IMG/VR virus record: IMGVR_UViG_3300021082_000031
Coordinates: 1-51,562 of that record
Origin: a virus
Taxonomy: Duplodnaviria; Caudoviricetes
Length of the DNA stretch: 51,562 bases
Direction: 5' to 3' (one strand)
The notes under the pieces are model-generated. The model saw only the letters and a program-made list of their open reading frames with translations, made no database searches and was not told where the DNA came from. Numbering within the stretch: the first letter of the stretch is position 1; every line of letters starts with the position of its first letter. A program made the position numbers and the translations under genes. Below are positions 1 through 51,562 of the stretch, in pieces.

Positions 1-153
1 CCTCGCGCGCACACACACACACACGCGCGCAGGCGCGACGTAGATCTTTGTTTTAGTACCTCCTACTTCTAGTGATCTACAGAGTCAGAGTCAGAGGGAC
101 CCCCTTCGAAGGGGGTTCGAACACCCTTCCGACCCCCTTACCTTTCCCCGTAG

Positions 154-166
154 AATCAACAACTTA
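154..166 (+). promoter_or_regulatory. IHF-consensus binding site
   Basis: AATCAACAACTTA matches WATCAANNNNTTR exactly and lies in an AT-richer patch of the non-coding end. Confidence 0.55.
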
Positions 167-224
167 GAAAAGTCGCCATCCCTAGCTAGATATTGTTAGT
201 AAAACCAAGGGACTTCCTGGCCCC

Positions 225-253
225 CAACCTTGAGGTACAACGTGTCAAGGTTG
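225..253. repeat. Inverted repeat, 9-bp arms and 11-bp spacer (operator-like)
   Basis: CAACCTTGA-N11-TCAAGGTTG. Confidence 0.6.
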
Positions 254-527
254 TGAGTAGGAATACCCACACTCCACCCGCCTCCCCACCTTGGGCGTCT
301 CCCCCACTTTCCCCTACTCGCTGTAGGCTGAACGACAGAACGCCGGTCCAGTCCCCCGGCCTTCAGGAGCGCCAGGTAGTCCTGCCCATCGGCTCACCCC
401 TCCCTCGAGCCGCTACATGCGAACACCTGGCGCTCCGCACGCCCCTCCACCCCCCTCCACCGCGCTCCACCGCGACCCCACAGGTTCCTAAACGCCAGCT
501 TCCCAGCCTGCCTGATCGCTCCCCCTG

Positions 528-560
528 CCCCCCGCCGGGGGCGGGGGCCCCGGCGGGGGG
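528..560. repeat. Perfect 13-bp GC hairpin
   Basis: CCCCCCGCCGGGG (528-540) and CCCCGGCGGGGGG (548-560) with a 7-nt loop. Confidence 0.7.
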
Positions 561-653
561 GTTTCCGCCGTTTCCGGCGTTTCCGCGAGCCCGAGGCGAG
601 CGTTTCCGGCCGCCCAAGCGGCCTGGCTGTGCCGTTTCCGTTCGGGCGTTTCC
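561..653 (+). repeat. Iteron-like GTTTCC array (6 copies)
   Basis: GTTTCC at 561, 570, 579, 602, 634 and 648; the first three have a 9-bp period. Confidence 0.6.
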
Positions 654-738
654 AGCCTCGAGCGCCTCGAGCCCGCCGGCGCTGGCCGACCGGGCATGTC
701 GCCTCGAGCGCCTCGCCGGCTCGCGTCTCGCGGTGCAG

Positions 739-754
739 TGTTCCACGTGGAACA
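739..754. promoter_or_regulatory. parS: parS centromere-like site (ParB/Spo0J binding)
   Basis: TGTTCCACGTGGAACA is a perfect palindrome matching the chromosomal parS consensus TGTTNCACGTGAAACA family; the palindrome extends to 738-755. Confidence 0.85.
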
Positions 755-785
755 CACGTGCCGGCATGGCTCGCCCCTCGAGCGT

Positions 786-825
786 GCTAGGTCATGCGCC
801 CAATCTGACGCTAGGGCATGCGCCC
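786..825 (+). repeat. 16-bp direct repeat upstream of the early promoter
   Basis: GCTAGGTCATGCGCCC (786-801) and GCTAGGGCATGCGCCC (810-825). Confidence 0.6.
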
Positions 826-912
826 GAAGGTAGGGCAAACGCCACACTTGTCGGCCGGCCGACATCGGTCGGCGAGTCGGCGCCCCGCGTCTCGTGGCTC
901 CTCACTTGGTGC

Positions 913-942
913 TTGACGGCTCGGCGAGCGGTGTGGTAGTCT
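913..942 (+). promoter_or_regulatory. sigma70-like early promoter
   Basis: TTGACG-N18-TAGTCT with TG upstream of the -10; about 90 bp before the first gene. Confidence 0.6.
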
Positions 943-1030
943 GGCGACCTCGGGCGCGTAAAAAGCCTGGGACGCGCGACTGGCCGTCGCATGGAGCGAG
1001 GGCGAACCAAGGCGCAACGAGGGGTGACAG

Positions 1031-1267
1031 ATGGCGACAGCGAGACAGCACAGAGCGAGTGCGGGAGCGTGGCGGCAGTTGGCCGAGGAGTTCGGGCGCA
1101 AGGCCTTGCGAGACGTCGAAGCGTTGACGGCGGTGCCTGGCGTGGTGACGCTGACGGAGCCGGAGCGGCGGCAGGTCGAAGCGTGGCTGGTGGCGAGCGT
1201 GCGCGATGCGTGCTACTTCGGGCGGCTGGCACAGATGGCGGCGCGCAACGCGCAGGGGGTGAAGTGA
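1031..1267 (+). CDS. Early hypothetical protein
   Basis: ATG preceded by GGGGTGA SD; coupled to the next gene. Confidence 0.75.
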   Translation: MATARQHRASAGAWRQLAEEFGRKALRDVEALTAVPGVVTLTEPERRQVEAWLVASVRDACYFGRLAQMAARNAQGVK

Positions 1268-1464
1268 TGGCGCGGGCCACGGTGGTGCTGGTGGTGTACG
1301 GGCTCGCGGGTGTGGGGCTTGGGCTGCTCGCGGGGGCGGCCTGGGTGGCAGTGGCGCGGCTGCTGTCGCGGTGCGTGGTGGGGCTCGTGTGGCCCGAGGA
1401 TGCGGAGCTCGCGCGGGTGGCGCGGGTTGGCCGAGGCGCGGGAGCAGCGGGCCCGCGGGTGTGA
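1267..1464 (+). CDS. Small membrane protein
   Basis: TGATG overlap, GGGGTGA SD, hydrophobic N-terminal half. Confidence 0.6.
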   Translation: MARATVVLVVYGLAGVGLGLLAGAAWVAVARLLSRCVVGLVWPEDAELARVARVGRGAGAAGPRV

Positions 1465-1473
1465 GGTGGGGCG

Positions 1474-1806
1474 ATGAGCCGGCCTGGGGTGGTGGTGCTC
1501 GCGGAGTACCCCAGCGCGCGCAGTGGGGCGCGGCTGGTGGCGACCATGCAGCGGCTCGCGGTGCTCGAGGCGCGCATGAGTGTCGAGCGGCTCCGCGCGG
1601 GCGACTTCGTCGGCGCGCACATGGCGGCCGAGCGTGCCGAGGTTGAAGCGCGGGCGACGGGCTGGCTGGTGATGGCAGAGGCGGCGATGCGGATGCAACG
1701 GCGCGCGAACTTCGCGTTGTTGGAGCAGAGCATCAGGGACGCGCAGCAAGCTGCACAGGCCGACTACTGGTGTGGCCTGGCGATGACGGATCGGGGGCTC
1801 TGGTGA
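1474..1806 (+). CDS. Early hypothetical protein
   Basis: GAGGTGGGG SD; helical composition. Confidence 0.7.
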   Translation: MSRPGVVVLAEYPSARSGARLVATMQRLAVLEARMSVERLRAGDFVGAHMAAERAEVEARATGWLVMAEAAMRMQRRANFALLEQSIRDAQQAAQADYWCGLAMTDRGLW

Positions 1807-2360
1807 GTGGCGCGCGTGCAGTCGTGGCGCGCGACCTCGCGCAAGCGGCGGCCTGGCGCGCGGTAGCTTCGGCTGCCGCGCGAGCGGCGCGCACGTTGCC
1901 GGCAGGGTGGACGAGCGTGCGACAGGAGGCCTACGGCGAGGCCATCGCAGCGGCGCGGGAGTGGCTCGCGTCGGCGCGGTCGGTACGGCTGGAGCTCGAG
2001 CCGCGGCCCGCGTGCAGCGGGTGTCCCGATGGCTGCCGGGAGTGTGAGGAGCTCAACATGCCGCGAAAGCGACTGGACGAGCGGAGGGGCGTCGTGAGCG
2101 GCGATCTTGGGCTCAGCCGACCGATGCGCATGGATTGGTCAACGGTCAAGCCTGGGGACCGTCTCGAAGTCTGGAGCGGGCGCGGGTTCGAAGTGGTCCT
2201 CGTCGTCGAGGTGCGAGACGAGGATCTCGGATCGCCCCTGTTCCCGCGTGTCGAGCGGGCGGTACTCGTGCGGACCTTGGAGGAGGGTGGATCGTGCGGG
2301 TTGCGGCGACTGTGGCAGAGCAGTGCGCGCGTCCGGTTGCATGAGGTGAGTCTGTTCTAG
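1803..2360 (+). CDS. Early hypothetical protein (CxxC-CxxC motif)
   Basis: GTGA overlap; CSGCPDGCREC. Confidence 0.6.
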   Translation: MSGARAVVARDLAQAAAWRAVASAAARAARTLPAGWTSVRQEAYGEAIAAAREWLASARSVRLELEPRPACSGCPDGCRECEELNMPRKRLDERRGVVSGDLGLSRPMRMDWSTVKPGDRLEVWSGRGFEVVLVVEVRDEDLGSPLFPRVERAVLVRTLEEGGSCGLRRLWQSSARVRLHEVSLF

Positions 2361-2438
2361 TGGGCCAGTGTGGGCCCGTCAGGTGGCAGCCTGGCGGGCC
2401 CGAGCGGGCGCACTAGGGCGCACGAGTAGGGGTGAGAC

Positions 2439-2771
2439 ATGAACGCGAAGATCGAGACGGCCGAGGCCGTCACCATCAAGTTGAGCGGGTTCAACGAGCA
2501 GAGCAGCCCGGCGGGCAAGCTGGCCGACGCGGAGATCCACTTCGGACCTGGGGCCGGGTTGTTGGCCGGGTTGAAACTGATCGGCTTTGCGGTGTGGGAG
2601 CGGCGTACCGCGAGCAGCCGGCGCAACGTCACCTTTCCCTCGCGGACGTACAGCGTGAACGGCGAGCGGCGATCCTTCGCCCTGTTGCGCCCGACCGAGG
2701 ACGTCGGCGCGCAGGACGCGCTACGAGACGCCATCCTGGCGGCCTACGCCGAACACGAGGCGGTGCGCTAG
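2439..2771 (+). CDS. SpoVG-like nucleic-acid-binding protein
   Basis: KLADAEIHF..GLKLIGFAVWER..NVTFPSR..LRDAILAAY pattern resembles the SpoVG fold; strong SD. Confidence 0.65.
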   Translation: MNAKIETAEAVTIKLSGFNEQSSPAGKLADAEIHFGPGAGLLAGLKLIGFAVWERRTASSRRNVTFPSRTYSVNGERRSFALLRPTEDVGAQDALRDAILAAYAEHEAVR

Positions 2772-3130
2772 TGGGGTGGTCGGGGCCCCGCGAGGGCTAC
2801 CGCAGCATCGCTGCCGCCATCAATGCCGAGTTCAACCCGGAGCACATCGACGAGCAGCGGATCGTGGGGCCTGGCCTGGCGTGGGTCCTGCTGAACGCGA
2901 GCGCCACCGAGAGCGGCGAGCCGCTGATCTGCTGTGTGCTGCTCGAAGGTGGACTCGCCAAGATCATGAGCACGGCCGAGGGTCCGTATTACACCGGGTG
3001 TCCGCTGGCGTGGTACGCGCGTGTGCCAGTGGCCGAGTACGGGTACGACGCGGAGTGGCGGCGGCGCAACCGGGCCGCGGCGCAGGACGGCCAGGATCGG
3101 CGGCGCAGTCTCGGCGCGGGGGTGCACTGA
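2771..3130 (+). CDS. DUF6927-like protein
   Basis: KIMSTAEGPYYTGCPLAW..AEWR motif; TAGTG overlap. Confidence 0.55.
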   Translation: MGWSGPREGYRSIAAAINAEFNPEHIDEQRIVGPGLAWVLLNASATESGEPLICCVLLEGGLAKIMSTAEGPYYTGCPLAWYARVPVAEYGYDAEWRRRNRAAAQDGQDRRRSLGAGVH

Positions 3131-5568: not shown

Positions 5569-6006
5569 ATGACCACACAGAAAACCATCACGATCCCACT
5601 GATCAACCAGCGGCCGATCCGCATCATGGCGGATCGCTGGCTGATCATCGCGTCGGCCGAGGAATGGAACGGGCAGGAGCGCTGCCAGGCCAACCGCGAA
5701 CACACGCTCATCGTGCGCGAGGAAAGCAACGATCTCAACGCGGACGTGTGCGGGCGCATCCTCGTCCACGGGTCCTATGAAACGCAATGGGCCAACGAGC
5801 ATCAGCGAAAGGCCGGGCTACTGCTCGATGCGTTCATGGTGCTGGGCGATGACTACTGGCCGGCGATCATCCGCGCGATCCGGGAGGTCGGCACCGAGAT
5901 CGGCATGACCGAGCGCGGGATCAAGGAGTGCATCGCGGATCTGCCGCCGCGGGACATCGACGAGGGCGAACCAACGCAGGACAACAACGAAGGGGTGACG
6001 AAATGA
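5569..6006 (+). CDS. Hypothetical protein
   Basis: GGAGGGGTGA SD; globular composition. Confidence 0.75.
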   Translation: MTTQKTITIPLINQRPIRIMADRWLIIASAEEWNGQERCQANREHTLIVREESNDLNADVCGRILVHGSYETQWANEHQRKAGLLLDAFMVLGDDYWPAIIRAIREVGTEIGMTERGIKECIADLPPRDIDEGEPTQDNNEGVTK

Positions 6007-6866
6007 CGTACAGAGAACGCAGAGAGCGCAGGGCGGAACGGTTGCGGGAGTGGGCCGACAAGCGCGCAGCGAAAAGCGCGGCGGGGTTTCAGGCCGCCAA
6101 GCGGATCGCCGACGGGATCCCGTTCGGGCAGCCGATCCTAGTCGGGCACCATTCAGAGAAGCACCACCGGGCCGACATCGCGCGGATTGATAGCGGGATG
6201 CGGCGCGGGATCGAGAACGAAAACAAAGCGGCCGAAATGCGCAGCAAGGCCGCGAACATCGACGCCGCGGCCGACGCGGCGATCTACTCCGATGATCCCG
6301 ACGCCATCGAGGCATTGACGGCGAAGCTCGAGCGCCTCGAGGCCGAGCGCGAGCGGTGCAAGGTGATCAACAAGGCGATCCGAAAGCACGGGCTCGCGCT
6401 GCTGATGGAAGAGGCGAAGAACGGCGAGCCGATCCACCTGTTGCCGGCACTGACCGCGCGAGAGGCGGCGGATCTCCTGTCGGTCGTGCGTCATCAGCCG
6501 TATTACAACGCCGAGTCTAAGGGCTTCCCGCCCTACCACACGGCGAACTTGGGCGGCAACATCACGCGCGCCCGGCAGCGGCTCGCCGGGCTCAAGCGGG
6601 ACCAAGAGAACCGCGACCAGTGGCCCGAGGACACCGGCACGCGCGAACGGGTCGCGCTCGTGTGGTTCCTCGTCGAACACGGCGAAAGCGTCGACGCGAT
6701 CCCGGCGTGGCAGTTCGACACGCACCGCGACGAGTGGAGCCGCGACGACGGCGCGCGCGTGTTCCGGGTCGGCCCGCGCGGCGAAGCCTCGGCGTGCTTT
6801 GAAGCGCTGGAGGCGCGCGGCTACCCGCGGCGCGCGGTGTACTTCACCATCGGGGGGCGATCATGA
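6003..6866 (+). CDS. DUF3560 domain protein
   Basis: GIPFGQPILVGHHSE and IYSDDPDAIEAL signature. Confidence 0.85.
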   Translation: MTYRERRERRAERLREWADKRAAKSAAGFQAAKRIADGIPFGQPILVGHHSEKHHRADIARIDSGMRRGIENENKAAEMRSKAANIDAAADAAIYSDDPDAIEALTAKLERLEAERERCKVINKAIRKHGLALLMEEAKNGEPIHLLPALTAREAADLLSVVRHQPYYNAESKGFPPYHTANLGGNITRARQRLAGLKRDQENRDQWPEDTGTRERVALVWFLVEHGESVDAIPAWQFDTHRDEWSRDDGARVFRVGPRGEASACFEALEARGYPRRAVYFTIGGRS

Positions 6867-9576: not shown

Positions 9577-10224
9577 TTACCTCCGTCGGCGAATCACGCC
9601 GGCACCGATGAGGCCCAGGCCCAAGAGCACGAGCGTCGTCGGCTCAGGGACCACCTCGTCGCGCGGGCCCGCAATCAAAAACGCGGAGTCAGGGCCGTCG
9701 TTGCTGACCGGCATGATCGCGTGGAATTGCACGACATCCGTCCCCGCGAACCCGGCCAAATTGAAGCCGGTCAAGAGGTAGTCGGCGAACCCGTTGCCGC
9801 TATTCCCTGCGGGCGTCGGCGGCACGGCCTGCGGGCCCGTCCAGATGTCGACCACGTTGCCGTTGATGCTCATCGCGAACAAACCGAGAACCTGATCCTC
9901 CTGCCCATTGGCCTGCGCGAAGTCCAAGCCGACGATGAAGCGGTCGCCGAACAGGAACCGCACGGCGGCCACGCTGTATTCGGGCGACTCGAGATCCCAC
10001 GAGATATTCAGGCCCGCACCGCCGGTCGGCGTGGCCGTGAAGTTGGGAATCTCCGCGGTCACGCGCGAGTTGCAATTGCTGCCGCCGAACACACACGGGC
10101 GATTGGTCTGCTCCTGTAGTTCGGAGCCGATAGCGATCTCCGACAACGTGAGCACACCCGCCGACGCCACGCTTGGCAACACCAACAGTGCCGCCACCAC
10201 CGTTCCACAAATCAGTCGATTCAT
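9577..10224 (-). CDS. PEP-CTERM sorting domain protein
   Basis: N-terminal signal peptide (..PSVASA|G); C-terminal VPEPTTLVLLGLGLIGAGVIRRRR. Confidence 0.92.
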   Translation of the reverse strand: MNRLICGTVVAALLVLPSVASAGVLTLSEIAIGSELQEQTNRPCVFGGSNCNSRVTAEIPNFTATPTGGAGLNISWDLESPEYSVAAVRFLFGDRFIVGLDFAQANGQEDQVLGLFAMSINGNVVDIWTGPQAVPPTPAGNSGNGFADYLLTGFNLAGFAGTDVVQFHAIMPVSNDGPDSAFLIAGPRDEVVPEPTTLVLLGLGLIGAGVIRRRR

Positions 10225-23496: not shown

Positions 23497-23853
23497 TTAC
23501 TTGAAGCGGTTGGTGAGTCGCTGCCGGTGGGCATCCTGCACCCGTTTCATCACCTCGGGGTCGCGGCCCACGATCACCTGCAACGTATTGTTGATCTCAT
23601 GCAGGGTGCGGCGCACCCGTCTAAGGTTAGAAATGGACCAATAAAAGAAAGCGGCCAGCGGGACCATGATCGCCACAAACAACAGGCCGAGTTCCACACT
23701 GCTCAGTGTCAGACCCACCACGGACGCCCCCAGGAACGGCGGCACGAGCACGAACCACCCCATCCGCTGAAGCTCCCGTGCGGGCTCCAGCAGCAGGGAC
23801 CACGGGTCCAGTAACACGTCGAGTTTGCGCACTAATTCGAGCGCGCCGGTCAT
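23497..23853 (-). CDS. Two-TM membrane protein (holin candidate)
   Basis: Two hydrophobic segments, basic C-terminus; ATGA overlap with the giant gene. Confidence 0.6.
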   Translation of the reverse strand: MTGALELVRKLDVLLDPWSLLLEPARELQRMGWFVLVPPFLGASVVGLTLSSVELGLLFVAIMVPLAAFFYWSISNLRRVRRTLHEINNTLQVIVGRDPEVMKRVQDAHRQRLTNRFK

Positions 23854-26800
23854 TGGTCCTCGAACTGCGCGTCGAACTCCGCGCGCCGCGCCAGGGGGGT
23901 CAGCCGCCGGGCCCGTTCCCGCGGCGACAGCCGCCGGCCCGCCTCGTAGGCCTTCCGCTGCCGACTGGAGAGCGCCTCGAGCGCCGTCCGTGCGCCCTCG
24001 GTGTCGCCACGGGCGAGCGCCACGCCGGCACGGCGCCGACGTCTGCGCGACAGAATGCTCTCTTCGCGCTTGGCCTCCTGGGAGAACTCGTACATCTCGC
24101 TTTCCTGTTTGCGCGTGGCCTCGCGCGCCGTCGTCTCGATGCCCAGCAGCGACAGGAGATCCTCTTCGGCGCTGATGTCGCGGAGTACCTCGCCCTTGCG
24201 GCCGATGATCTGGTGCGTGCCGCCCTGCTCAGCGGTGCGCTGGAGGACACTGCCGGCCTTGCTGATGTAGCGCGGCAGGACGCGATCCTCGGTGCCGCCG
24301 GGCTCGAAGTGCTCCTCGAAGTCGTGCTCCGCGGCGCCGAAGCCGTGCTCGAGGACGTCGTAGGCGGCCGAGGGTCCCGGCAGGCCGCCCATGCGCGGCC
24401 AGAAGAAGTTCATCCACTCGATGCCACTGATCGCACTGGCGGCATAGATGCCGGTCGCCATCGCCAGGAACCGCATCTTCACGCGCGGGTCGGGGTGCCG
24501 GGCCACGTCCTCGAGCATGGACGCCCACACGAACGGGTACTTGGTAAAGACCTTGAGTGGGCCCCAATGCCGGTGGAAGGGGTTGTTGCCGAGGTCGCCC
24601 GCGATGCCCTGCGTCTGCCCGACCAGTTGCCGCGCGAAGTCGTCGGCCGCTTCCGGCGACAGCCCGTGCTTCTTCGCGTAGTGCTGCGCGCCGGCCCACG
24701 TCGCCCGCCGGTTGGCCGAGTCGGACCACCGCATCGGCGTCTGCGAATACTCGAGGTACTTCTCGACCCACGGGTGAAACTGCGCCTCGACGGCCGAGTC
24801 GTGCCCCATCTGCCGCCGCGCCAGGTCGAGGAACTTGAGCTCCTGGCGGCCCTCTTTCGAGTAGGCCTTGATGATGCCCGCGACCGTGCTCTCGACCCCG
24901 ATCTGCGGGATGTTCATCAACGCCTGCGTCATGTTCGCCAAGCCCGAGTCGATGCCCCAGCCGAGGAGCTGGTGGTAGATGGCATTGGTGACGATGGCGT
25001 TGCCCTGCTGGACCTGTTTGCGCGTGATCTTGCCGCTCGTGAGGTCGCGGATTTGGTCCTCGATCCACGTCGGCTTGTTGGTCAACTCGTTCTTCAGTTC
25101 CTCGACGTACTTCAGCCGGCGATGATGCCCGAGGTCACGCGATCGCTGGCCCTCGGCGTCGAGGTGGGCGAGCGCCTCGTCGACCTTCTGCCGCCGCGCG
25201 AGGCGCCGCTGGAACGGCGTCATCGTCTCCTTGCCCTCGAGGTCGTAGAGGTCCCGCATGATCGGCTCGATGTGCTTCCACACGTCGGGGATCACCTTGT
25301 CGGGGGACCAGAACTTCATCGCGACCCCGCCGATGTCCTTCATCCGGTCGGGCGCCTGCCGCACTTGCGGGATCGGCTTGTACGTGCCGTTGACGATCAA
25401 GCGGCCCGTGTTGATGGTGTCGGTGAGGTGCTTGGTCAGCGTCGGCGCGGCCTTGATGGCGGCCTTGCTGAACTGCCACGCGCCTTTCGAGGCGTAGCCG
25501 GCCGCGGCGCCGATGAGAATGTTGTCGAGGAGGTTCTCGTCGTCCTCGCCGGCCGTCATGGCGCCCAGCAGGCCGCCGCCGGCCGTGCGCAACGCGGTCA
25601 GCACCGCGCCGGGGTTGCGCTTGTACGTGGCCTCGAGCGCCGGCAAGCCGTCGTTGGCATCGCCCAGGTCCAGCGGGAGACTGCCGCGCTCGTCGCCCAG
25701 CTTCTTCATCAGGCGCCGCGCACTGGCGACGACCGCCTTGGCCTTGTCGTCGATGGTGGCGTTGACGTTGTCGGTCGCGGTGGCTTCCTTGCGGCCCGCG
25801 TCTACGGCTCGGTCGTCGAAGAGTCCTCCAGCCGGATCGGCTTCGCTCCACTCGTCCGCGGTGCCGCTCCCGCCTTCGTCGCCGCCGAAGAGGCTCGGGC
25901 CTTCTTCGCCGCCTGCGCCCGGTCCCTCTCCTCCAGTTGGTCCAGCACCCGGTCCACCGGGCCCTGGCCCGCCGCGGACATCGGCTTCAAGGGCTTCCGC
26001 CACCCGGTCGGCCGCTTTGCCGAGGCTGAGACTTCCGGCTTGGTGCTCATCGAAGGCCTCCTTGAGTGCCCGCATCGTGTGCGAGCCCTGCGCGTTGACG
26101 AACTTGTCGAAGAGTTCCTCGGCCCGTCGCGCCTCGTAGCCGATCTTCGCCATCGCCGCTTTGTCGATCTTCGTGTCGCCGGCTGTCTGCAACACCTCGG
26201 CGTTCTTCGCGCCCCCGCCGAACGTGCGACGGTTCTTCTTGAACACCGAGAGGATCGACTGCTCGAACTTGACCATCGCTTCGGCGTTGGCCGTGCGCGT
26301 CAGCTTGCCGAAGATGTCGCCTTGGGTTTCCTCCGTGAGTTGCGCGGCCCCCTTCGCCAAGAGGCTCTTGGCCGCGCTGATATTGGGGAGGTCGCGGTTG
26401 CGCCCCAACAGGTCGAGCAAGGCTTCTTGCAGTTCGGCGCCCTTGTACTGGCTCACTAGGCGCGCGAACTTTGGGTCGAGCTCCTCCATGTCCAACAGGT
26501 GTGCGAACGCGGCGTCCTCGAGCGCCGCGAGGTCGCGACCCTGCCGGAACTTCTCGCCGCTGTCGGCTTCGATCTTCCCGACCCGTCGCTGCTCAGAGGG
26601 CGTGAACTCGCCACTGCGCAGCACCCGCGCGATGTCGACGGGGTCGGTGGTGCCGCTGACCAAGTTGCGCATGGCGCCGCCGCGGCGCGCGTCGGCCACG
26701 GTGACGCCTGCGGCCTCATCCCACACGACGGCGTAGAGGTCGGGCACCTCCTTGCCTTGGGCCAAGAGGTCTTGCGCCAGGCCGACGCGCTGATGCCCGT

Positions 26801-29800
26801 CGACCACGTAGTAGGAACCGTCGAGGCGCTTGTGCAGGATGACGCGCTCGGCCATGCCTGAGTCGACGTCCCACTCTTCGACACCCTTGAGCTTCGACGT
26901 GCGGCCGCGCTCGTCCGTGCCGCCCTTGAACTGGTAGGCGTCGGGGTCGATCTTGATCTTGTCGGCCGCGATCCGAATCTCTGTGCGCCCTGGCGGGTTG
27001 GTCGAGGGCGTGCTACTCGGGCTTGCGACGTTTGCGGAGGGCCCCGAGGGCGCCCCCGCCTGCGGAGGGTTTGCCGGCGGCACCCCCGGCCCGCTGGGTC
27101 CAGCCGGTGCGTGCCAGGACCGATTGTTCCCGACCTTGCCTTGCGTCCAACCGAGGCTCCGCAACACCGCGCGCCGCTGTTCGCGCACCGCGGGGTCGGG
27201 GTCGAGTGGCCGGTCGAGTAGCGTCGTCTCGCCGGCTGGCGGCGCCCACTCGCCGGGCGCTTTCGCCGTCGGCGCCGACCCGGCCGCCTTGCGCGTCGCC
27301 TTCGGCGCGGCGGGCTTGTCCTGCAACGGCGGCGGGTCCTCGCCGCGGAGGATGGCCGCGAGCGTCTCCTTGACGTCGTCGGTCGTGTACGTGCTGCCCT
27401 CGGGGACGTCTTTCTTCCAGCGCGGATCTTTGGCCCCCTTCGCCCAAGACGCCTTGAAGCCGTGCTTGGTGAGCACCTCGCGGATCGCCTTGGACGGGGA
27501 CCGCTCGAACGTCGCGCCGACGGAGGGCAGACCGTTGAACGTGCCGACGTCCACGACGGGCGGGCGCGTCGGCCCGTGCTCCGCGCCAGCGGCCGGCGTC
27601 TCGGGCGCGGCGGGCTCTGCGGGCTCCACTGGCTCGGGCGGCGGTGGGGGCTCGCCTGCGGCCTTGGCCTTGGCGGCGGCGGCCTCCCGGCGGGCTGTGG
27701 CGGCGGCGGAACGGGCCTCGGCCTCGGCTTTCTTGGCGGCCACTTCGTCGGCCTTGGCTTTGGCCTTGGCTTCCCGCGCTACGCGCTCGTTGTCGCGGAT
27801 GCTGGCGAGGTCCTTGTTCCACTTCTTCGGCGTCTTGCCGCCGTTGTTCTTCACGACCTGATAGGTGCCGTCGGCCTTGCGGATGACGAGGTTCTTGTTG
27901 GCCGCCGGATCGTGGCTGCGCCAGTCGTCGCCCAACGGCGTGAACTTGCCGGCCTGGTTGATGGTGCCGGGGGTGTCGCCCTCGGCGAGCGTGATGCCCT
28001 CGGCTTCGGGGAGGTTGGCTTTCGTCTCGGGCGCGGGCGCTTTCGTCTCGGGTGCGGCGGTCGGCGTCTCGGGCGTCGGCGTGACGAGCGCGTCGGCTTC
28101 ATCCGCAATGGCCGCCTGCGCCGTGACGCGGCCCTCCTGTCGCAGTTGCCCGCGCGCCCGCTGCTCGGCGAGGTCGGCGGCGCGCGTCATAATCCGCTCG
28201 GCGACGTCGTCACCCAGCGTCGACAGTGCTTCTTCCAGCCACTCGTCCGCGGCCTCGGGGTCGGCGGCCATCCGCTCGGCGATCTGTTCAGCGATGAATT
28301 GTTCCCCCTGCTGCGGCGTCAGGCCGCGCTCGCGGACCTGACCCACGAGCTTGCGGACCCACATATGCTCCTGCCGGATGGCGGCATTGGCTTTGGCGTC
28401 AAAGTCCTGCGGGTTCAGCGCGGCGGCGGTGGCCGCGGCCGATCCTGGCGGGTGCTCACGCAGCACCGTTCGGATCAACTCGATGTCGGCGTCATGCCCG
28501 CGACCCTGAAGGAAGAAGTACGCGAGGCGCTCGCGCTCGCCCTCCAAGGTGTCGGCCCGCCCCTCAAGGGGGGTGGCGCTTGCCATGTTGTCGGCCGCCG
28601 CCTCGTCCACGTCACGGAGGAGCGCGAGCAAATCGCTTCGCTGGTCGCCCGGCGTGATGAGCGTGTCGGCTTCGTCGGGTGTGGTCGGCTTCGCCTGCGG
28701 CGTCGTGACGAGGTCCTCGGGCGTGCCGGAACGTACCTCGGGCACGGGCGTGCCCAACCCCTCGATCTTGCCCTTGCTGTTGTACTGGTCCAACAGCTTC
28801 GAGATTTGCGCCGGGTCGTTGTTGGCGAGCTTGCGAATCCGCGCGAAGAACGTCGCGGCGTCGGCCTCGCTGACGCTGCCAGATTCCCCGCGCGCCTTGA
28901 GGATCGAGTCGAAGCGGTCGGACTGGCTCGAGACGGTCAGTGCCCACTTCGTGACCGGGATCTTGACCCCCGTGGTGGCGGGCGGGGTCGGGTTGAGCAA
29001 CTCGTCAATCTCGTCGCGCGCCACCTTCGCGTCGTGGGCCGCCTTGGTGTCGCCCGCGGCCTCGGCGGCGTCCATAGGCGCCACGGCAGGCGGGGGCTCA
29101 CCCTCGGCCTTGGGCTGCTGCCCGGCCTCCCACGCGGCTTTCTGCTCGGGCGAGGCGAACTGATCGAAGCCCGCCTGGTCGCGCATGGTGCGGTTCAGTA
29201 TCCGCGCCTGCTCGTCCCCGAACGGGACAAACGAGTTGAGGGGCGTCCCGTCGGGCCCGATCTCGGTGAGCGTGACGCCGTCGTGCCCGGCCTCCTGCAT
29301 CTTGCGCACGTAGGCCTCGGCGCCGCCCGCCGCGTCAATCTCTGCGGCCAGCTTCTCGCGCGTGCCGACGTGGTAGGGGTTCTCGAGCGTGACCGCGGCG
29401 TCGTAGTCGATGGGCCCGAAGTGCGCCGTGTCGCTATCGGTGAACCAGTGGCCGATGTCGTTGCGGCCAGCACTCGCGCCCGCCTCGCGGCTGAACGTGT
29501 CGAACGGCCGGTACGACGAATGCCGCAGCCGGCGCTCGCCGGGCTTGAGGTCCACGGGGCCGCGCGGCGCGACGGTGCCCCCGCCAGTGGCGGCGGCGTC
29601 CTGCTCGTCGGCCTGGCGCAGCATCGCTTCGATGTCGTCCTCGGGCGCGGCGCCGCCCTGCGCGGCGTCGAGGTCGCGGGCGAGCGGGCCTTCGCCCAGG
29701 CCCTCGGCCGGCGCGGCGCGTCCCTGGCGCGCTTCGATGTCGGCGACGGCCATGTACGCCGACAGTTCGCCCGACTGCTGCAACCGGGCGAGTTCGCGGA

Positions 29801-31826
29801 AGGCGTCGGCGCCGTGCTCACGCTGGAGCTTCGCCATCGTGTTGCCGAGGCGGATCGTCGGGTCGGTCGTCGGATCGACCGTGCGACCCCCGCCGCCCTC
29901 GCCACTCGGCGCCACGGGCTCGGGGGGACCGCCGCCTGGTGGGACACCGCCGCCCTCGCCACCACCACCGGGCGGCAGGCCGCCGCCGTCGCCGCCTGCG
30001 CGCGTGGGCACCCACTGCGTGCCGGTCCACATCATCTCGCGGCCCATGACGTTGACCGTCTCGCCGGGCTGCGGGATGCCCGCGCGCCGTTCCTCGCCGA
30101 CCTGGCCGAGTAGCTCGCGCATCAGCGGGTCCTCGTCGGCCGCGCCCGTCGTGATCTGCGAGGGCGGGAACTCGGGCGGCGTGAACTCGTCGCCGGGCAG
30201 GGGCTCGGCCGCCGCCGCCTCTGGTGGCTGTGTGAGGCCGGTGGAGGATTCCACCTCCGGTGCCGGTCGACGGCCGAGAACCATCTGGTCGGGCCCTGGT
30301 TGCGGCTTCCGCATCGGCGGCGCCACGGCGGCGGCCAAGTCGGGGAACGCCTCATAGAAGCGGTCCACGGGCAACGTGAACGGGTCCTTGGTGCCTTGGA
30401 ACCGGATCGTGACGGTCGTGCCGTCCGACGACACCTTGAGCGGGGCACCGAAGTTGCCGCCCGCGAGGTTGAGTTGCTTGGCGACCTTCAGCGGCACGTC
30501 CACGCTGAACGGGCCGGGCCCGCCCGCGGTGAGCGGTGGGCCGGGCTCGAAGCTGACGTCGGTCTGCGGGCCCTGCTCGAGCGCCATCCGCTGCACGTCG
30601 GCCTGCATCGGGTCCGCTTGGCCCAGCAGTTCCTCGAGCGTCGGGTAGGCCGGCGGCGGCGTGAAGGGCTCGGCGCCCTCGGCCACGGGACTCCCGGCCG
30701 GGTAGCGGCCGGCGGGCAGTTCGGGCGGGCCCACGGGGGGCTCGGGTCCGTACATCGGGAACGGGCCTTCGGGCGGGGGCTGCGCGAGCGGGTACGGGCC
30801 CACAGGCGGTGGCTGCGTCAGCGGGTTCGGTGCCGTCGGCGGGACGTTCTCGTAGGCGTTGATGCCGGGCGCGGGATGCCGCGAGCGCGGCGCCGGGCCG
30901 CGGATCGTGCCGCCGTTGGGCTGACGGTTGATGTTGTCGCCCATGTTGGCCTGGTTGCGCTGCCACGACTCCATCTCGCGCTCGGCCCAATACGGCGTCT
31001 TTTCGGGCGGCTGCGCGGCCTTGAAAGCGTCGATCTGCTGACGGAGCACCGTGTCGGCTTCGCCCTTGAGCCGCTGGCTGCGCGCCGCGAGCGCCGGCAC
31101 CGCGCCGACCGCCGCGCCGGCTGCGCCACCGATGCCGGTCCCCAGGCCGAGGTCCAGCGCCACGCCAGTCGGGTCCCACGGGTCGCCACCCTCGATGCCG
31201 CGTGTCACCGCGCCCTGTGCGACGTTGAGCGCGCCGCCTTCGGCCGCACCCGCGGCACCAGTCACCGCGGCCGGCGCCAGCCACTCGCCGGCCGTGTCGA
31301 CAAGCCGCTTCGCCAGGCTGGTCCCCGTGCGCTCGGCGAGCTTGGACAAGGGGCCGACGTAGTTGTTGAGCCCGCCGAACGCGGTCGCGATACCCAGCCG
31401 CGCGCCCAGCTTGCCGATGTCCTGCCCGATGCCGGCACCGGGCGGCATCGTCTTGCCGTCGAGGTACGCAATGGACTCGAGGCCACTCGCAATCGCCTCG
31501 CCCCCGAACCCGGCCAGCGGGCCGCCGAAGCTGCTCGCGATGCGGATCGGCGTGGCGGCACTGTCGGCCAGCGCGCCGATGACGCCGACGTTCCGGTTCG
31601 GCTGCAACCGCTGCGCGTCCTCGAACGCGGCGGTGCGGGCCTGCGAGGCCTCGAGTTCGGCGAGCGTGCGGTTGGTGCGCTCGGGGTCGGCCGGCAGGCC
31701 GCCCGCGAACTCCTTGGTTTCCGCGAGCAGTTCATCCACGTCCCAAATGTCCTGGGGCTTCTGCGCGAGCTTGCGCTGGCGTAGGGCATCGAGAACCGGG
31801 GTGGTCGAGACGTAGGGTCGCGGCAT
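23850..31826 (-). CDS. Giant internal virion/ejection polyvalent protein (ART-like and ParB-like domains)
   Basis: 2658 aa; Gly/Ala-rich membrane-like N-terminus; RH..FDTF..GHWFT..LENPY..GHDGV; IDPDAYQFK..YVVDGHQR; helical C-terminus. Confidence 0.85.
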   Translation of the reverse strand: MPRPYVSTTPVLDALRQRKLAQKPQDIWDVDELLAETKEFAGGLPADPERTNRTLAELEASQARTAAFEDAQRLQPNRNVGVIGALADSAATPIRIASSFGGPLAGFGGEAIASGLESIAYLDGKTMPPGAGIGQDIGKLGARLGIATAFGGLNNYVGPLSKLAERTGTSLAKRLVDTAGEWLAPAAVTGAAGAAEGGALNVAQGAVTRGIEGGDPWDPTGVALDLGLGTGIGGAAGAAVGAVPALAARSQRLKGEADTVLRQQIDAFKAAQPPEKTPYWAEREMESWQRNQANMGDNINRQPNGGTIRGPAPRSRHPAPGINAYENVPPTAPNPLTQPPPVGPYPLAQPPPEGPFPMYGPEPPVGPPELPAGRYPAGSPVAEGAEPFTPPPAYPTLEELLGQADPMQADVQRMALEQGPQTDVSFEPGPPLTAGGPGPFSVDVPLKVAKQLNLAGGNFGAPLKVSSDGTTVTIRFQGTKDPFTLPVDRFYEAFPDLAAAVAPPMRKPQPGPDQMVLGRRPAPEVESSTGLTQPPEAAAAEPLPGDEFTPPEFPPSQITTGAADEDPLMRELLGQVGEERRAGIPQPGETVNVMGREMMWTGTQWVPTRAGGDGGGLPPGGGGEGGGVPPGGGPPEPVAPSGEGGGGRTVDPTTDPTIRLGNTMAKLQREHGADAFRELARLQQSGELSAYMAVADIEARQGRAAPAEGLGEGPLARDLDAAQGGAAPEDDIEAMLRQADEQDAAATGGGTVAPRGPVDLKPGERRLRHSSYRPFDTFSREAGASAGRNDIGHWFTDSDTAHFGPIDYDAAVTLENPYHVGTREKLAAEIDAAGGAEAYVRKMQEAGHDGVTLTEIGPDGTPLNSFVPFGDEQARILNRTMRDQAGFDQFASPEQKAAWEAGQQPKAEGEPPPAVAPMDAAEAAGDTKAAHDAKVARDEIDELLNPTPPATTGVKIPVTKWALTVSSQSDRFDSILKARGESGSVSEADAATFFARIRKLANNDPAQISKLLDQYNSKGKIEGLGTPVPEVRSGTPEDLVTTPQAKPTTPDEADTLITPGDQRSDLLALLRDVDEAAADNMASATPLEGRADTLEGERERLAYFFLQGRGHDADIELIRTVLREHPPGSAAATAAALNPQDFDAKANAAIRQEHMWVRKLVGQVRERGLTPQQGEQFIAEQIAERMAADPEAADEWLEEALSTLGDDVAERIMTRAADLAEQRARGQLRQEGRVTAQAAIADEADALVTPTPETPTAAPETKAPAPETKANLPEAEGITLAEGDTPGTINQAGKFTPLGDDWRSHDPAANKNLVIRKADGTYQVVKNNGGKTPKKWNKDLASIRDNERVAREAKAKAKADEVAAKKAEAEARSAAATARREAAAAKAKAAGEPPPPPEPVEPAEPAAPETPAAGAEHGPTRPPVVDVGTFNGLPSVGATFERSPSKAIREVLTKHGFKASWAKGAKDPRWKKDVPEGSTYTTDDVKETLAAILRGEDPPPLQDKPAAPKATRKAAGSAPTAKAPGEWAPPAGETTLLDRPLDPDPAVREQRRAVLRSLGWTQGKVGNNRSWHAPAGPSGPGVPPANPPQAGAPSGPSANVASPSSTPSTNPPGRTEIRIAADKIKIDPDAYQFKGGTDERGRTSKLKGVEEWDVDSGMAERVILHKRLDGSYYVVDGHQRVGLAQDLLAQGKEVPDLYAVVWDEAAGVTVADARRGGAMRNLVSGTTDPVDIARVLRSGEFTPSEQRRVGKIEADSGEKFRQGRDLAALEDAAFAHLLDMEELDPKFARLVSQYKGAELQEALLDLLGRNRDLPNISAAKSLLAKGAAQLTEETQGDIFGKLTRTANAEAMVKFEQSILSVFKKNRRTFGGGAKNAEVLQTAGDTKIDKAAMAKIGYEARRAEELFDKFVNAQGSHTMRALKEAFDEHQAGSLSLGKAADRVAEALEADVRGGPGPGGPGAGPTGGEGPGAGGEEGPSLFGGDEGGSGTADEWSEADPAGGLFDDRAVDAGRKEATATDNVNATIDDKAKAVVASARRLMKKLGDERGSLPLDLGDANDGLPALEATYKRNPGAVLTALRTAGGGLLGAMTAGEDDENLLDNILIGAAAGYASKGAWQFSKAAIKAAPTLTKHLTDTINTGRLIVNGTYKPIPQVRQAPDRMKDIGGVAMKFWSPDKVIPDVWKHIEPIMRDLYDLEGKETMTPFQRRLARRQKVDEALAHLDAEGQRSRDLGHHRRLKYVEELKNELTNKPTWIEDQIRDLTSGKITRKQVQQGNAIVTNAIYHQLLGWGIDSGLANMTQALMNIPQIGVESTVAGIIKAYSKEGRQELKFLDLARRQMGHDSAVEAQFHPWVEKYLEYSQTPMRWSDSANRRATWAGAQHYAKKHGLSPEAADDFARQLVGQTQGIAGDLGNNPFHRHWGPLKVFTKYPFVWASMLEDVARHPDPRVKMRFLAMATGIYAASAISGIEWMNFFWPRMGGLPGPSAAYDVLEHGFGAAEHDFEEHFEPGGTEDRVLPRYISKAGSVLQRTAEQGGTHQIIGRKGEVLRDISAEEDLLSLLGIETTAREATRKQESEMYEFSQEAKREESILSRRRRRRAGVALARGDTEGARTALEALSSRQRKAYEAGRRLSPRERARRLTPLARRAEFDAQFEDQ

Positions 31827-49380: not shown

Positions 49381-50850
49381 TCAGGCGTAGAACTCGCTCA
49401 AATCGTCCCCGCCGCCGTAGCCTTCGCTGCCGAAGGCAATTGCCATGTCCATCGGGTTGCCCGTCTCGCGTTCTTCCTCGCGTTCGCGCGCCCATTGCCG
49501 CCGTTCGCGCTCCCAATCGCCGGGTTTGGGTTCGGACTCTACCAGATCGGCGACGACGTCCTTGTCGGGCAATTCGGGCCACGTCATCAGCGCGTACCGC
49601 AACGCATCGGGCAAATCGTCGTTGATCTTGATGACCTGTTCGGTCAGGAGCTCGCCCAACTTGTTCGCGTTCTCCTTCCACCGGTACGAGCGCAAATCCT
49701 TGAGCGTCTCGATGCAGCGGCTCTGCACAAACCACAGCTTGCGACTGTGCATCCAGCTCGAGACGCGCTGAATGCCCGCGACCACCGCGTTTTCGGCCGG
49801 CGTGAAGAACTCGCCCATCTGGCCGAACTCGATGATCGTTTGCGCCTGGCTGCGGTCAATCGCGCGACACAGGATGGTCAACGGGCGCTCGGGCGAGAAA
49901 CTGTGCAAGATCTGCTGAATTTCGTGCCAGTGCTGCCCCAGCGATCGATACCGCTTCTTGTACTCGAACACCTGAATCAGCCCGTGCGTGGTCGGCACGA
50001 GCCCGACGACCGCAAACGGGTGATCCGCGCCGGGATCGACGCCCAAAATGATGCCCCGCGCGTGGTGAATCCGCGGCCATTCGGGGAGGAAGGCCTGGAC
50101 CTGGCCGTCGGTCAATTCCTGCGACGGCGGTAACGCCGTGTCGTCGTAGACCTGGCCCGAGAAGGTGACGAAATCGGCTTCGAACTCCTGGCGCGCGAAA
50201 ATCGGGTCCATCCGCCGCCGCCACGCCGCGACAATCTCCGGTTTCAGCAGCGGATTGTCGAGCGTTTTGTACTTGCAGGCCCACACGCCGGGATCGGACT
50301 CGGTGGCGGGAATCCAGAGGTCTTTCCAGCACCAATCGAAGCCATTGGGCGTGGTCGTGTGGATCGCCACGCCGTCGCGGTCGGCCAAGGCCGGCATCAT
50401 CGTGTGCCAGGCCAACTGCGCGATCTTGCGCGACTCGTCGATCCACGCGAAATCCAGGCCCGGCCCGCGCGCTTTGTTGGGGTCCTCGAGCGAGCGGAAC
50501 GCCAACCGCGTCTCGCCCTTGATGTAGAGCGTCTGGTGCTTCTCGCTCCAGTCCTGAATCCACCCCTTCGGGATCGCGTCAAACACCGCCGGCTTGACGA
50601 AGTCCTCGAGGTCGCCGTAGGTCGGCGCACACACCCACCCGAACTGCTTCGGCTTGCGCGCAATCAGCTTCGGGACCGCAATGCTGCCCGCGCGGGTTTT
50701 CCCGCCGCGTCGGCCCGCGAACAACGCTAACTGGGTAAACGACGGCCCGCCATCGGGCCGGGTCGCGGTCAACGCTTCGAAGAAGGCGTGCTGGTAGGGG
50801 TTGTACTGGAGTTTGACGGTGCCGTCGCCCCCCGCCAGGGTGCTAGACAA
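49381..50850 (-). CDS. terL: Terminase large subunit
   Basis: Walker A GRRGGKT, Walker B AWIDE, TTTPNG coupling motif, nuclease GVDPG and DDLPDALRY. Confidence 0.95.
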   Translation of the reverse strand: MSSTLAGGDGTVKLQYNPYQHAFFEALTATRPDGGPSFTQLALFAGRRGGKTRAGSIAVPKLIARKPKQFGWVCAPTYGDLEDFVKPAVFDAIPKGWIQDWSEKHQTLYIKGETRLAFRSLEDPNKARGPGLDFAWIDESRKIAQLAWHTMMPALADRDGVAIHTTTPNGFDWCWKDLWIPATESDPGVWACKYKTLDNPLLKPEIVAAWRRRMDPIFARQEFEADFVTFSGQVYDDTALPPSQELTDGQVQAFLPEWPRIHHARGIILGVDPGADHPFAVVGLVPTTHGLIQVFEYKKRYRSLGQHWHEIQQILHSFSPERPLTILCRAIDRSQAQTIIEFGQMGEFFTPAENAVVAGIQRVSSWMHSRKLWFVQSRCIETLKDLRSYRWKENANKLGELLTEQVIKINDDLPDALRYALMTWPELPDKDVVADLVESEPKPGDWERERRQWAREREEERETGNPMDMAIAFGSEGYGGGDDLSEFYA

Positions 50851-51463
50851 GCTCCCCGCCGCGTGGCGCCAGGTCCAGCCGATGCGCCTTGGGCACGCCC
50901 ACCACGCCCTCGAGCTTGGGCGCGGTGCCGCCCACCGAAATCATCACGCCGTTGGCGTCGACAATCTGCACGTTCAACTGCGTGGGCAACCGGCCATCGA
51001 CGACGTCGCCGCCGTTGCGCAACACCCCGACCCCGCGCAACGTCGCCAGGCCCGCCTCGAGGTTGTGCTGCTTGAGGTGCTCGTGCAACGTGTCGACCGC
51101 CATGTCGACCAAGTGGTCCTCGACAAAGGCCCGCGCCGCGTCGAGGGCCGGGAACGTCAGCTTGCGCGCCCGCCCCTCGGCCTGCCACGTCCGCAGCGTC
51201 CCGGTCGCCACCCCCAGCTTGCGCGCCACCCGCGCCAGCGGCAGCCCGTTGGCCCGGTACACCTGGACCGCCAGCAGCCGCTCGCGCAACTCCGCGTCGG
51301 TCAGCGCCGTGACCCCCGCAAAGTCGGCCACCGTCATCTGTGGCGGCTTGCGCAGCCCCTTCCGGTTGCCGGGGTCCACCGGGCCCCGCTCCCCGCGCTT
51401 GCTCTGGTTGAGTACCACCGAGGCCTGGCCCCCGACGCCGAACCGATGCTCCCGACTCCCCAC
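50843..51463 (-). CDS. Putative terminase small subunit (HTH; start uncertain, possibly near 51337)
   Basis: GLPLARVARKLGVATGTLRTW HTH; directly upstream of and overlapping terL. Confidence 0.6.
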   Translation of the reverse strand: MGSREHRFGVGGQASVVLNQSKRGERGPVDPGNRKGLRKPPQMTVADFAGVTALTDAELRERLLAVQVYRANGLPLARVARKLGVATGTLRTWQAEGRARKLTFPALDAARAFVEDHLVDMAVDTLHEHLKQHNLEAGLATLRGVGVLRNGGDVVDGRLPTQLNVQIVDANGVMISVGGTAPKLEGVVGVPKAHRLDLAPRGGELV

Positions 51464-51477
51464 CTTCCGCGGTAAGT

Positions 51478-51562
<85 letters not shown>

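Follow-up and report, generated by a model that had tools for sequence, protein, structure and literature searches.

A single host-type parS site in the control region of a P22-like podophage with a probable acidobacterial host

Introduction

Why should a phage that carries no recognizable partition genes bear the centromere site of a bacterial chromosome? Phage-plasmids such as P1, N15 and the extrachromosomal mycobacteriophage prophages bring their own ParA and ParB together with a private centromere. In phages phi29 and Nf, parS sites of the host type are read by the host protein Spo0J (PMC2731898). Here we analysed a 51,562-nucleotide stretch of DNA (the window), which is the entire virus record G000 of a P22-like podophage and has a chromosomal-type parS site near its left end. 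We describe the site and its surroundings, its distribution among relatives and in viral DNA generally, the probable host and a ParB-like region encoded elsewhere in the genome, and then weigh explanations for its presence.

Results

A perfect, single parS site

A preliminary description of this DNA, made from the sequence alone, had reported a perfect palindrome in the non-coding end and no second copy of it, and both statements stand. The palindrome, GTGTTCCACGTGGAACAC, is perfect over 18 bp, and its 16-bp core fits the parS consensus with no mismatch.

738..755, no strand: parS palindrome; core 739-754 is a chromosomal-type parS in single copy, identical to Pseudomonas aeruginosa parS2 and parS3 as given in PMC5098823 and to the candidate-host sites

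In the whole window this is the sole match at zero to two mismatches, and the two further places at three mismatches are as many as chance would give. An order-2 Markov model of the window gives 0.00016 as the expected count of any of the 16 consensus variants. The site thus has the features of a chromosomal parS in being a 16-bp consensus palindrome with the same sequence as the site of the candidate (probable) host. It differs from chromosomal ParABS in its place: chromosomal sites are origin-proximal and usually near parAB, whereas this one lies on a phage, between phage-native flanks, with no parA, parB, mnmG or rsmG nearby.

The phage genome and its control region

G000 encodes terminase, portal, major head protein, an SU10-type adaptor, an internal virion protein, RecE, RecT, an initiator and a resolvase. 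The early genes (plus strand, from 1031) and terS with the late genes (minus strand, across an unassembled junction) diverge from the non-coding region that bears parS. The features referred to below are as follows.

1..1030, no strand: phage-native non-coding control region, from which the early genes diverge on one side and terS, placed at the opposite end of the contig, on the other; parts match relatives L002 and L191
99..116, no strand: another 18-bp palindrome, conserved in the two nearest relatives
561..653, plus strand: six one-strand GTTTCC repeats, 3' of a G+C-rich block, also in both nearest relatives
913..942, plus strand: promoter-like element recognized by eye, with TTGACG at 913-918 (-35, 5/6), an 18-bp spacer, TG, and extended -10 TAGTCT at 937-942 (3/6)
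2439..2771, plus strand: 110-aa early gene used as host marker; no Pfam match; 74 of the 79 best GTDB loci titled Acidobacteriota
5928-6866, strand not given: DUF3560 protein in the early arm
9577-10224, strand not given: PEP-CTERM-tailed protein inside the replication module, between the initiator and resolvase genes
49381..50850, minus strand: terminase large subunit (TerL), the anchor for collecting relatives
50843..51463, minus strand: HTH protein in the small-terminase position; TerL-parS spacing estimated at about 1.85 kb on the inferred circular map
51486-51562, strand not given: poly-C tract closing the contig; record L001, which is nearly identical, also breaks off at this G-rich point

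The record is linear, with its poly-C end just past terS, and about 0.4 kb of junction, estimated from colinearity with L002, is unseen. CheckV gives a completeness of 46%, in conflict with terminally repeated relatives of 48.3-52.8 kb; the window is colinear with a 50.5-kb relative (the L191 contig). Family searches for tyrosine integrase, serine recombinase, ParA and ParB_N gave no match at E≤0.1 in the record, which covers all but the ~0.4-kb junction, and candidate-host ParA and ParB profiles and an integrase of the family, used as queries, found nothing in it either. The earlier statement that the phage has no parA, stand-alone parB or integrase therefore agrees with family and host-profile searches of the record.

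The early promoter that the preliminary description placed about 160 bp from parS survives in part: the spacing to the promoter-like element is 157 bp, but the element was recognized by eye, and a sigma-70 consensus scan of positions 1-3000 returned no promoter. Nor do the two nearest relatives, when aligned, show an evident counterpart of the element. Both relatives keep the palindrome at 99-116 and the G+C-rich block and GTTTCC repeats (500-653), though not parS; these conserved elements are candidate packaging or replication signals, and the GTTTCC repeats at 561-653 in particular are candidate TerS or initiator sites. The RNA fold of 480-960 has a z of -2.5. Searches of the window for tRNA genes and Rfam families gave no match, no iterons common to the non-coding region and the initiator gene were found, and a CCCTTC-type cluster upstream of TerL is present in only 3 of 44 loci.

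Flanks of the site and the nearest relatives

The possibility that the contig end is a chimera with host origin DNA, which the preliminary description had raised against its own reading, was rejected, since both flanks are phage-native and host similarity stops within a few bases of the site. To the left of parS, positions 97-130 and 500-597 match L002 (TerL 80%) and L191 (TerL 79%), and to the right about 783-850 aligns with L191. Compared with 13 host parS loci, the window is alike only over the site and a few bases next to it. One contig of 51,490 bp, possibly from the source sample, covers 39-3000 with zero differences; a contig from a second run spans 267-777 and ends 22 bases right of parS, so that it forms no formal bridge across the site. 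Two more runs, X3 and X4, give no coverage of parS, which carries no weight either way.

The same relatives bear on another point that had been named as damaging, absence of the site from close kin. Both nearest relatives (TerL 79-80%) keep the whole syntenic non-coding region without parS: the 47-kb G002 has no match at two mismatches, and the 50.5-kb L191 contig has none at one mismatch, the best place within its locus having four.

parS across the phage family

Relatives were collected with a 79-sequence TerL alignment, which gave 66 viral, 3 genome and 72 metagenome loci, merged into 90 clusters. At TerL identity of at least 40% there were 65 clusters; 28 of these had the full 2.5 kb upstream, and 5 of the 28 carried the site at no more than one mismatch, with 2 shorter loci in addition. 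The 25 more distant clusters included none with parS. Among the clusters at or above 40%, 7 sites fell within 108,666 bp of the 2.5-kb upstream zone and 3 within 517,197 bp elsewhere (reversed control, 0); the binomial p of 0.00035 is indicative only, as the zone was picked post hoc, is the main non-coding DNA and comes from related clusters. Most family sites lie 0.65-2.3 kb upstream of TerL.

In whole records, 13 of 50 matched at two mismatches, 6 of them at one or none (control, 1/50), and in the more distant whole records parS scored 0/14 and the control 3/14. Because P. aeruginosa sites with two mismatches are reported to be unbound in vivo (PMC5098823), only the 6 records at no more than one mismatch were counted. 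By the same measure 2 of 8 near-complete relatives carry the site (G007 and G028); G009, G047 and G051 have two-mismatch sites, and G002, G048 and the L191 contig lack any. The 10 carriers require 10 changes on a quick 59-row TerL tree, which excludes short and distant rows and takes its labels from fetched flanks only (L149 is unlabelled, though its record has the site).

Independent perfect copies occur in L230, L237 and L263. The place of the site varies: within the non-coding region it is at the late end (L263, L230), in the middle (L237, G028) or at the early end (window), and in L127 and L232 it lies past the portal gene. In L128, L230, L231 and L263, parS is seen about 35 bp from promoter-like boxes, recognized by eye, that face the terminase operon.

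Integrase was found in 2 of 13 records, and one of these, G028, also bears parS, which weakens the earlier suggestion that the site maintains a carrier state in place of integration. G002, G009 and G048 have neither parS nor integrase. Tyrosine recombinase genes lie near recombination genes at L561:4426-5763 and L562:5481-6914, so that the family mixes integrase-bearing and integrase-less genomes. In one parS-bearing relative, G020, ParB_N and HTH_ParB domains occur together in a stand-alone protein of 465 aa (L560:8070-9467), the sole example among 38 family records. Inspected by eye, its residue at the Arg173 position of parS readers is Ala, and its surroundings showed no ParA. Taken over the family, parS is likely an accessory that lineages gain and lose, and no core part of the life cycle.

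The probable host and its parS sites

The 110-aa early gene points to Acidobacteriota. With 37 of 64 GTDB parts scanned, 74 of the best 79 loci were Acidobacteriota, 3 belonged to other taxa and 2 named none; at least 29 of the Acidobacteriota loci name Vicinamibacteria, Vicinamibacterales or Luteitalea. The first 20 kb of the window matched 339 of 401 Vicinamibacterales genomes, among the matches listed almost all through this gene, whose homologues are 60-73% identical across genomes of the order and often number more than one per genome. The matches listed for these 20 kb in the 401 candidate-host genomes, with about two candidates scored in each, included no CRISPR spacer or provirus.

A contig of this phage family sits in the Vicinamibacterales bin G004. 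The choice of this order draws on that unpublished bin, as does the reading of locus L194, where, recognizing the genes by name, we take the order to be mnmG-rsmG-parS-parA. Two other family contigs are in Polyangiaceae and Burkholderiales bins, the nearest MAG relative being a lone contig in the Polyangiaceae bin, and binning alone is therefore weak evidence of the host. The predicted PEP-CTERM protein would fit a diderm host. Together, gene similarity and binning suggest that the host probably belongs to the Vicinamibacterales (Acidobacteriota), in keeping with the diderm host first proposed. Acidobacteriota are not known to sporulate.

The parS pattern was matched at no more than one mismatch in 140 of 151 genomes of the order, mostly one to three times each; the control also scores in some. 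When the site was compared with host parS, as the preliminary description had advised, the exact 16-mer preceded parA in all 6 candidate-host regions, which had been fetched because they matched. A canonical parB was shown in 5 regions, and in the sixth it was read from the next frame. Binding of parS by ParB is reported to need R173 and a small residue at 201 in Caulobacter numbering (PMC7383237), and the candidate-host ParB proteins keep the residues equivalent to R173 and G201.

parS in viral DNA at large

In IMG/VR, where counts are of redundant stretches and not species, the exact site occurs in about 2,600 stretches (estimated from 3 of 64 parts) and its T/A variant in about 5,700 (from 2 of 64 parts); full scans with control palindromes found 3 for the reversed sequence and 30 for that with the variable pair swapped. 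Judged from sequence counts, the parS motif is selected in phage DNA at large. The motif is strongly over-represented in phage DNA, and the undescribed system that had been suspected here is not peculiar to this phage.

The neighbourhoods of 80 viral parS loci (5-kb flanks) held ParA, MnmG or RsmG in none and a weak ParB_N in 2, and scanning 209 of 236 picked neighbouring ORFs gave matches to terminase, portal, capsid, baseplate, polymerase, helicase and microvirus pilot protein. The site lay within an ORF of at least 200 aa in 34 of the 80 and outside any ORF in 32, and most loci were single-copy. A general link between parS and terminase, suggested by neighbours on short contigs, was rejected on whole records: in the 30 of 50 records of at least 30 kb with TerL, the site was within 2.5 kb in 4 against 3.0 expected (p 0.35), within 5 kb in 6 against 6.0, and within 10 kb in 12 against 12.0. 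Only the subset with terminal repeats stood out nominally, with 4 of 14 at 2.5 kb against 1.2 expected (p 0.03, one of 12 tests).

In INPHARED, all 16 bases were matched in 39 of the 60 rows listed (77 records), including 10 Pseudomonas phage, 10 microvirus and 6 Klebsiella phage records, and a control palindrome from the window gave a full match in 0 of 32 records. Five of the 6 Klebsiella phages are 346-350 kb, and three are annotated with the match inside a baseplate gene. Enterobacteriaceae are described as being without chromosomal parAB (PMC4368675); a perfect match thus need not be functional, and these phages count against a simple rule.

Perfect parS sites were also seen in Microviridae genomes of 4.5-7 kb (L012:2485-2500; INPHARED H45, H46, H48, H58, H65, H66, H68 and H86-H88), for which chance is negligible. 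In Pseudomonas phage KPP25 the site is just 5' of the major structural gene (L378:5001-5018), and in Otagovirus M5.1 it lies 0.4 kb from the record start (L379:405-422).

A ParB-like region in a giant late protein

The window encodes a second element that recalls partition systems.

25950..26969, minus strand: ParB-like region, about aa 1620-1960 of a 2658-aa polyvalent-type protein (23850-31826), with a predicted ParB N-like fold and a helical DNA-binding-like domain

The structural model of this region has a pLDDT of 79 and was built on 7 sequences. The top Foldseek rows are ParB, Noc and Spo0J, with a best E of 0.005 and none at E≤0.001; VIA Z scores are 5.9-6.6, below the caution level of 8 for that tool, with 6.1 over 158 residues to Spo0J, and Atlas features give 0.93 to ParB_N clusters. 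Profile alignment to host ParB is weak and out of register, and the region has no Pfam match at E≤1 and no PDB sequence match. Homologous proteins are likewise giant, and ART-PolyVal occurs in some of them.

The domain was found in 7 of 26 records, among them G028 and G016 with the parS site and G002, G003 and G051 without it at up to one mismatch; in G007, which is terminally repeated and has parS, the domain was not found. The GK(S/D)R recognition-helix motif is absent in all 7 sequences, in which the position of G201 aligns to K, Q or E (the alignment is gapped around 173), and within 5-kb flanks none of the 80 other parS loci had a match to the domain. In phage polyvalent proteins, ParB domains have been described as unrelated to partition (PMC5512222), and the ParB fold is reported to be widely reused in phages (PMC12704722). 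We treat the predicted domain as separate from parS; the link between the two drawn in the preliminary description fails on co-occurrence and on the specificity residues.

Discussion

The parS site of this phage probably docks host ParB, as its identity with the candidate-host sites would suggest. For what purpose is a harder question, and our preferred answer, held tentatively and at a little less than even confidence, is inheritance of phage DNA during infections that stall in a slow-growing host. After injection, host ParB would load at the phage parS; host ParA and SMC would then position or segregate the unintegrated phage DNA, which would stay on the nucleoid and reach the daughter cells. 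We chose segregation as the purpose because of the phi29 precedent, the sufficiency of one site and the stabilisation of plasmids by the 16-mer: in P. aeruginosa a single such site, wherever placed, is reported to suffice for ParB loading, spreading and segregation (PMC5098823), and a plasmid was stabilised by this 16-mer with ParA and ParB (PMC4820964). Since ParB spreads over kilobases, parS tolerates changes of position. The co-option of host ParABS and SMC first proposed for this locus has thus gained an exact host-type site, the lack of ParA and ParB in the phage and viral enrichment of the motif, while the want of the site in both nearest relatives speaks against it.

Other uses of docked ParB can be imagined. 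Replicated phage parS might act as a decoy that titrates ParB from the few host sites and so stalls segregation or division in lytic growth, which we regard as unlikely. Most candidate-host genomes do have only one to three parS matches, position tolerance would suit a decoy as well, and Pseudomonas phages in culture, KPP25 and vB_PpuM-KoPa-4 among them, carry the site; we take these two to be lytic. A decoy, however, would pay in many copies, yet there is one here and in most of the 80 viral loci, and loss of ParB is non-lethal in P. aeruginosa according to PMC5521831. ParB spreading from parS might instead repress the early promoter as a switch between lysis and dormancy. Such gating is possible because native ParB represses genes beside the intergenic parS3 and parS4 of P. 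aeruginosa (PMC5521831), and the family sites are mostly in the non-coding control region, several of them about 35 bp from boxes that look by eye like promoters. This earlier proposal nevertheless fits poorly, and we consider it improbable: the site moves in the family, from the early end here to the late end in L263 and L230 and to a place after the portal gene in L127 and L232; 34 of the 80 other viral sites are within ORFs of at least 200 aa; the intragenic parS1 and parS2 are reported to have no effect on their neighbours at native ParB level (PMC5521831); the promoter-like element, picked out by eye, was missed by the sigma-70 scan; and the nearest relatives operate this region with no parS in it. 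An aid to entry, in which parS on the first-ejected DNA lets ParB loading draw in or protect the incoming genome, would suit the location of most family sites 0.65-2.3 kb upstream of TerL. If packaging is P22-like and headful, this DNA would presumably enter early. But this zone happens to be where the main non-coding DNA lies, and the 30 other parS records with TerL show no such placement (4 within 2.5 kb against 3.0 expected, p 0.35), so we hold this use to be very improbable.

The reader of parS could also be the phage itself, its ParB-like domain being injected within the 2658-aa protein and completing a self-contained two-part system. The resemblance of the model to ParB, Noc and Spo0J extends over the N and DNA-binding domains (Foldseek E 0.005; VIA Z 6.1). 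Against this, the domain is present in the site-less G002, G003 and G051, was not found in the site-bearing G007 and has no match in the 80 other loci; it lacks the GK(S/D)R motif and has K, Q or E at the G201 position, at odds with the rule in PMC7383237; and its kind is described in PMC5512222 as unrelated to partition. We therefore give this reading hardly any credence. Finally, the site may have no function: the palindrome could have arisen by chance, have come along with a fragment of host origin DNA or reflect chimeric assembly of the contig end. Its absence from the two nearest relatives, the 10 changes needed for 10 carriers on the quick TerL tree, the Klebsiella phage matches, which show that unselected perfect copies can exist, and the second-run contig that stops 22 bases right of the site all lean this way. 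The chance expectation of 0.00016, the phage-native flanks, the likeness to 13 host loci that ends within a few bases of the site, and the independent perfect copies in L230, L237 and L263 with no control match make a neutral origin improbable in our judgement. Docking of host ParB for segregation remains the reading that we prefer.

The principle of host-parS co-option is already known from phi29 and Nf. As in those phages, a podophage without partition genes bears the chromosomal parS of its (here probable) host, and host ParB is proposed to segregate the phage DNA (PMC2731898). The phi29 case as described there differs in its five sites, Spo0A boxes, sporulating host and spore entrapment, whereas the window phage has one site and a probable non-sporulating diderm host, and its nearest relatives lack the site. 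With P. aeruginosa parS2 and parS3 it shares the identical 16 bp, one copy of which is enough there (PMC5098823). The proposed segregation of an unintegrated phage genome is common to this phage and to the phage-plasmid cassettes; no counterpart of their own ParA, ParB and private centromere was found in the window. The giant late protein resembles the DdrB-like polyvalent proteins of PMC5512222 in having a predicted ParB-fold domain in a giant late-region protein beside virion genes without ParA, and differs in that its region has no Pfam match at E≤1 and adds a helical domain resembling the ParB DNA-binding domain. In the literature searched, which was mostly non-subscription, no paper was found that dealt with phages of non-sporulating hosts carrying host-type parS, or with an excess of such sites in viral metagenomes.

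To the known principle the present case adds a probable acidobacterial host, sister genomes without the site and a genome in which the site occurs together with an integrase. A general tie to terminase was tested and rejected, and cultured phages are at hand as test systems. For the window phage alone the importance is modest, because its nearest relatives do without the site. More broadly, we put at about evens the proposition that phages of non-sporulating hosts, including Microviridae and Pseudomonas phages, have repeatedly evolved a single host centromere as a gene-free plug into ParABS-SMC, whether for non-integrated inheritance or for disarming host segregation, and that the acidobacterial family shows gain and loss in progress. 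The same site is present in cultured phages of Pseudomonas putida KT2440 and P. aeruginosa, which puts a direct test within reach. If host ParB loads, thousands of phage genomes would engage host segregation through a 16-bp cis element that is invisible to gene annotation. The spore-entrapment trick of Bacillus phages would then extend to non-sporulating hosts, and phages classed as lytic would have a possible route to carrier states or pseudolysogeny.
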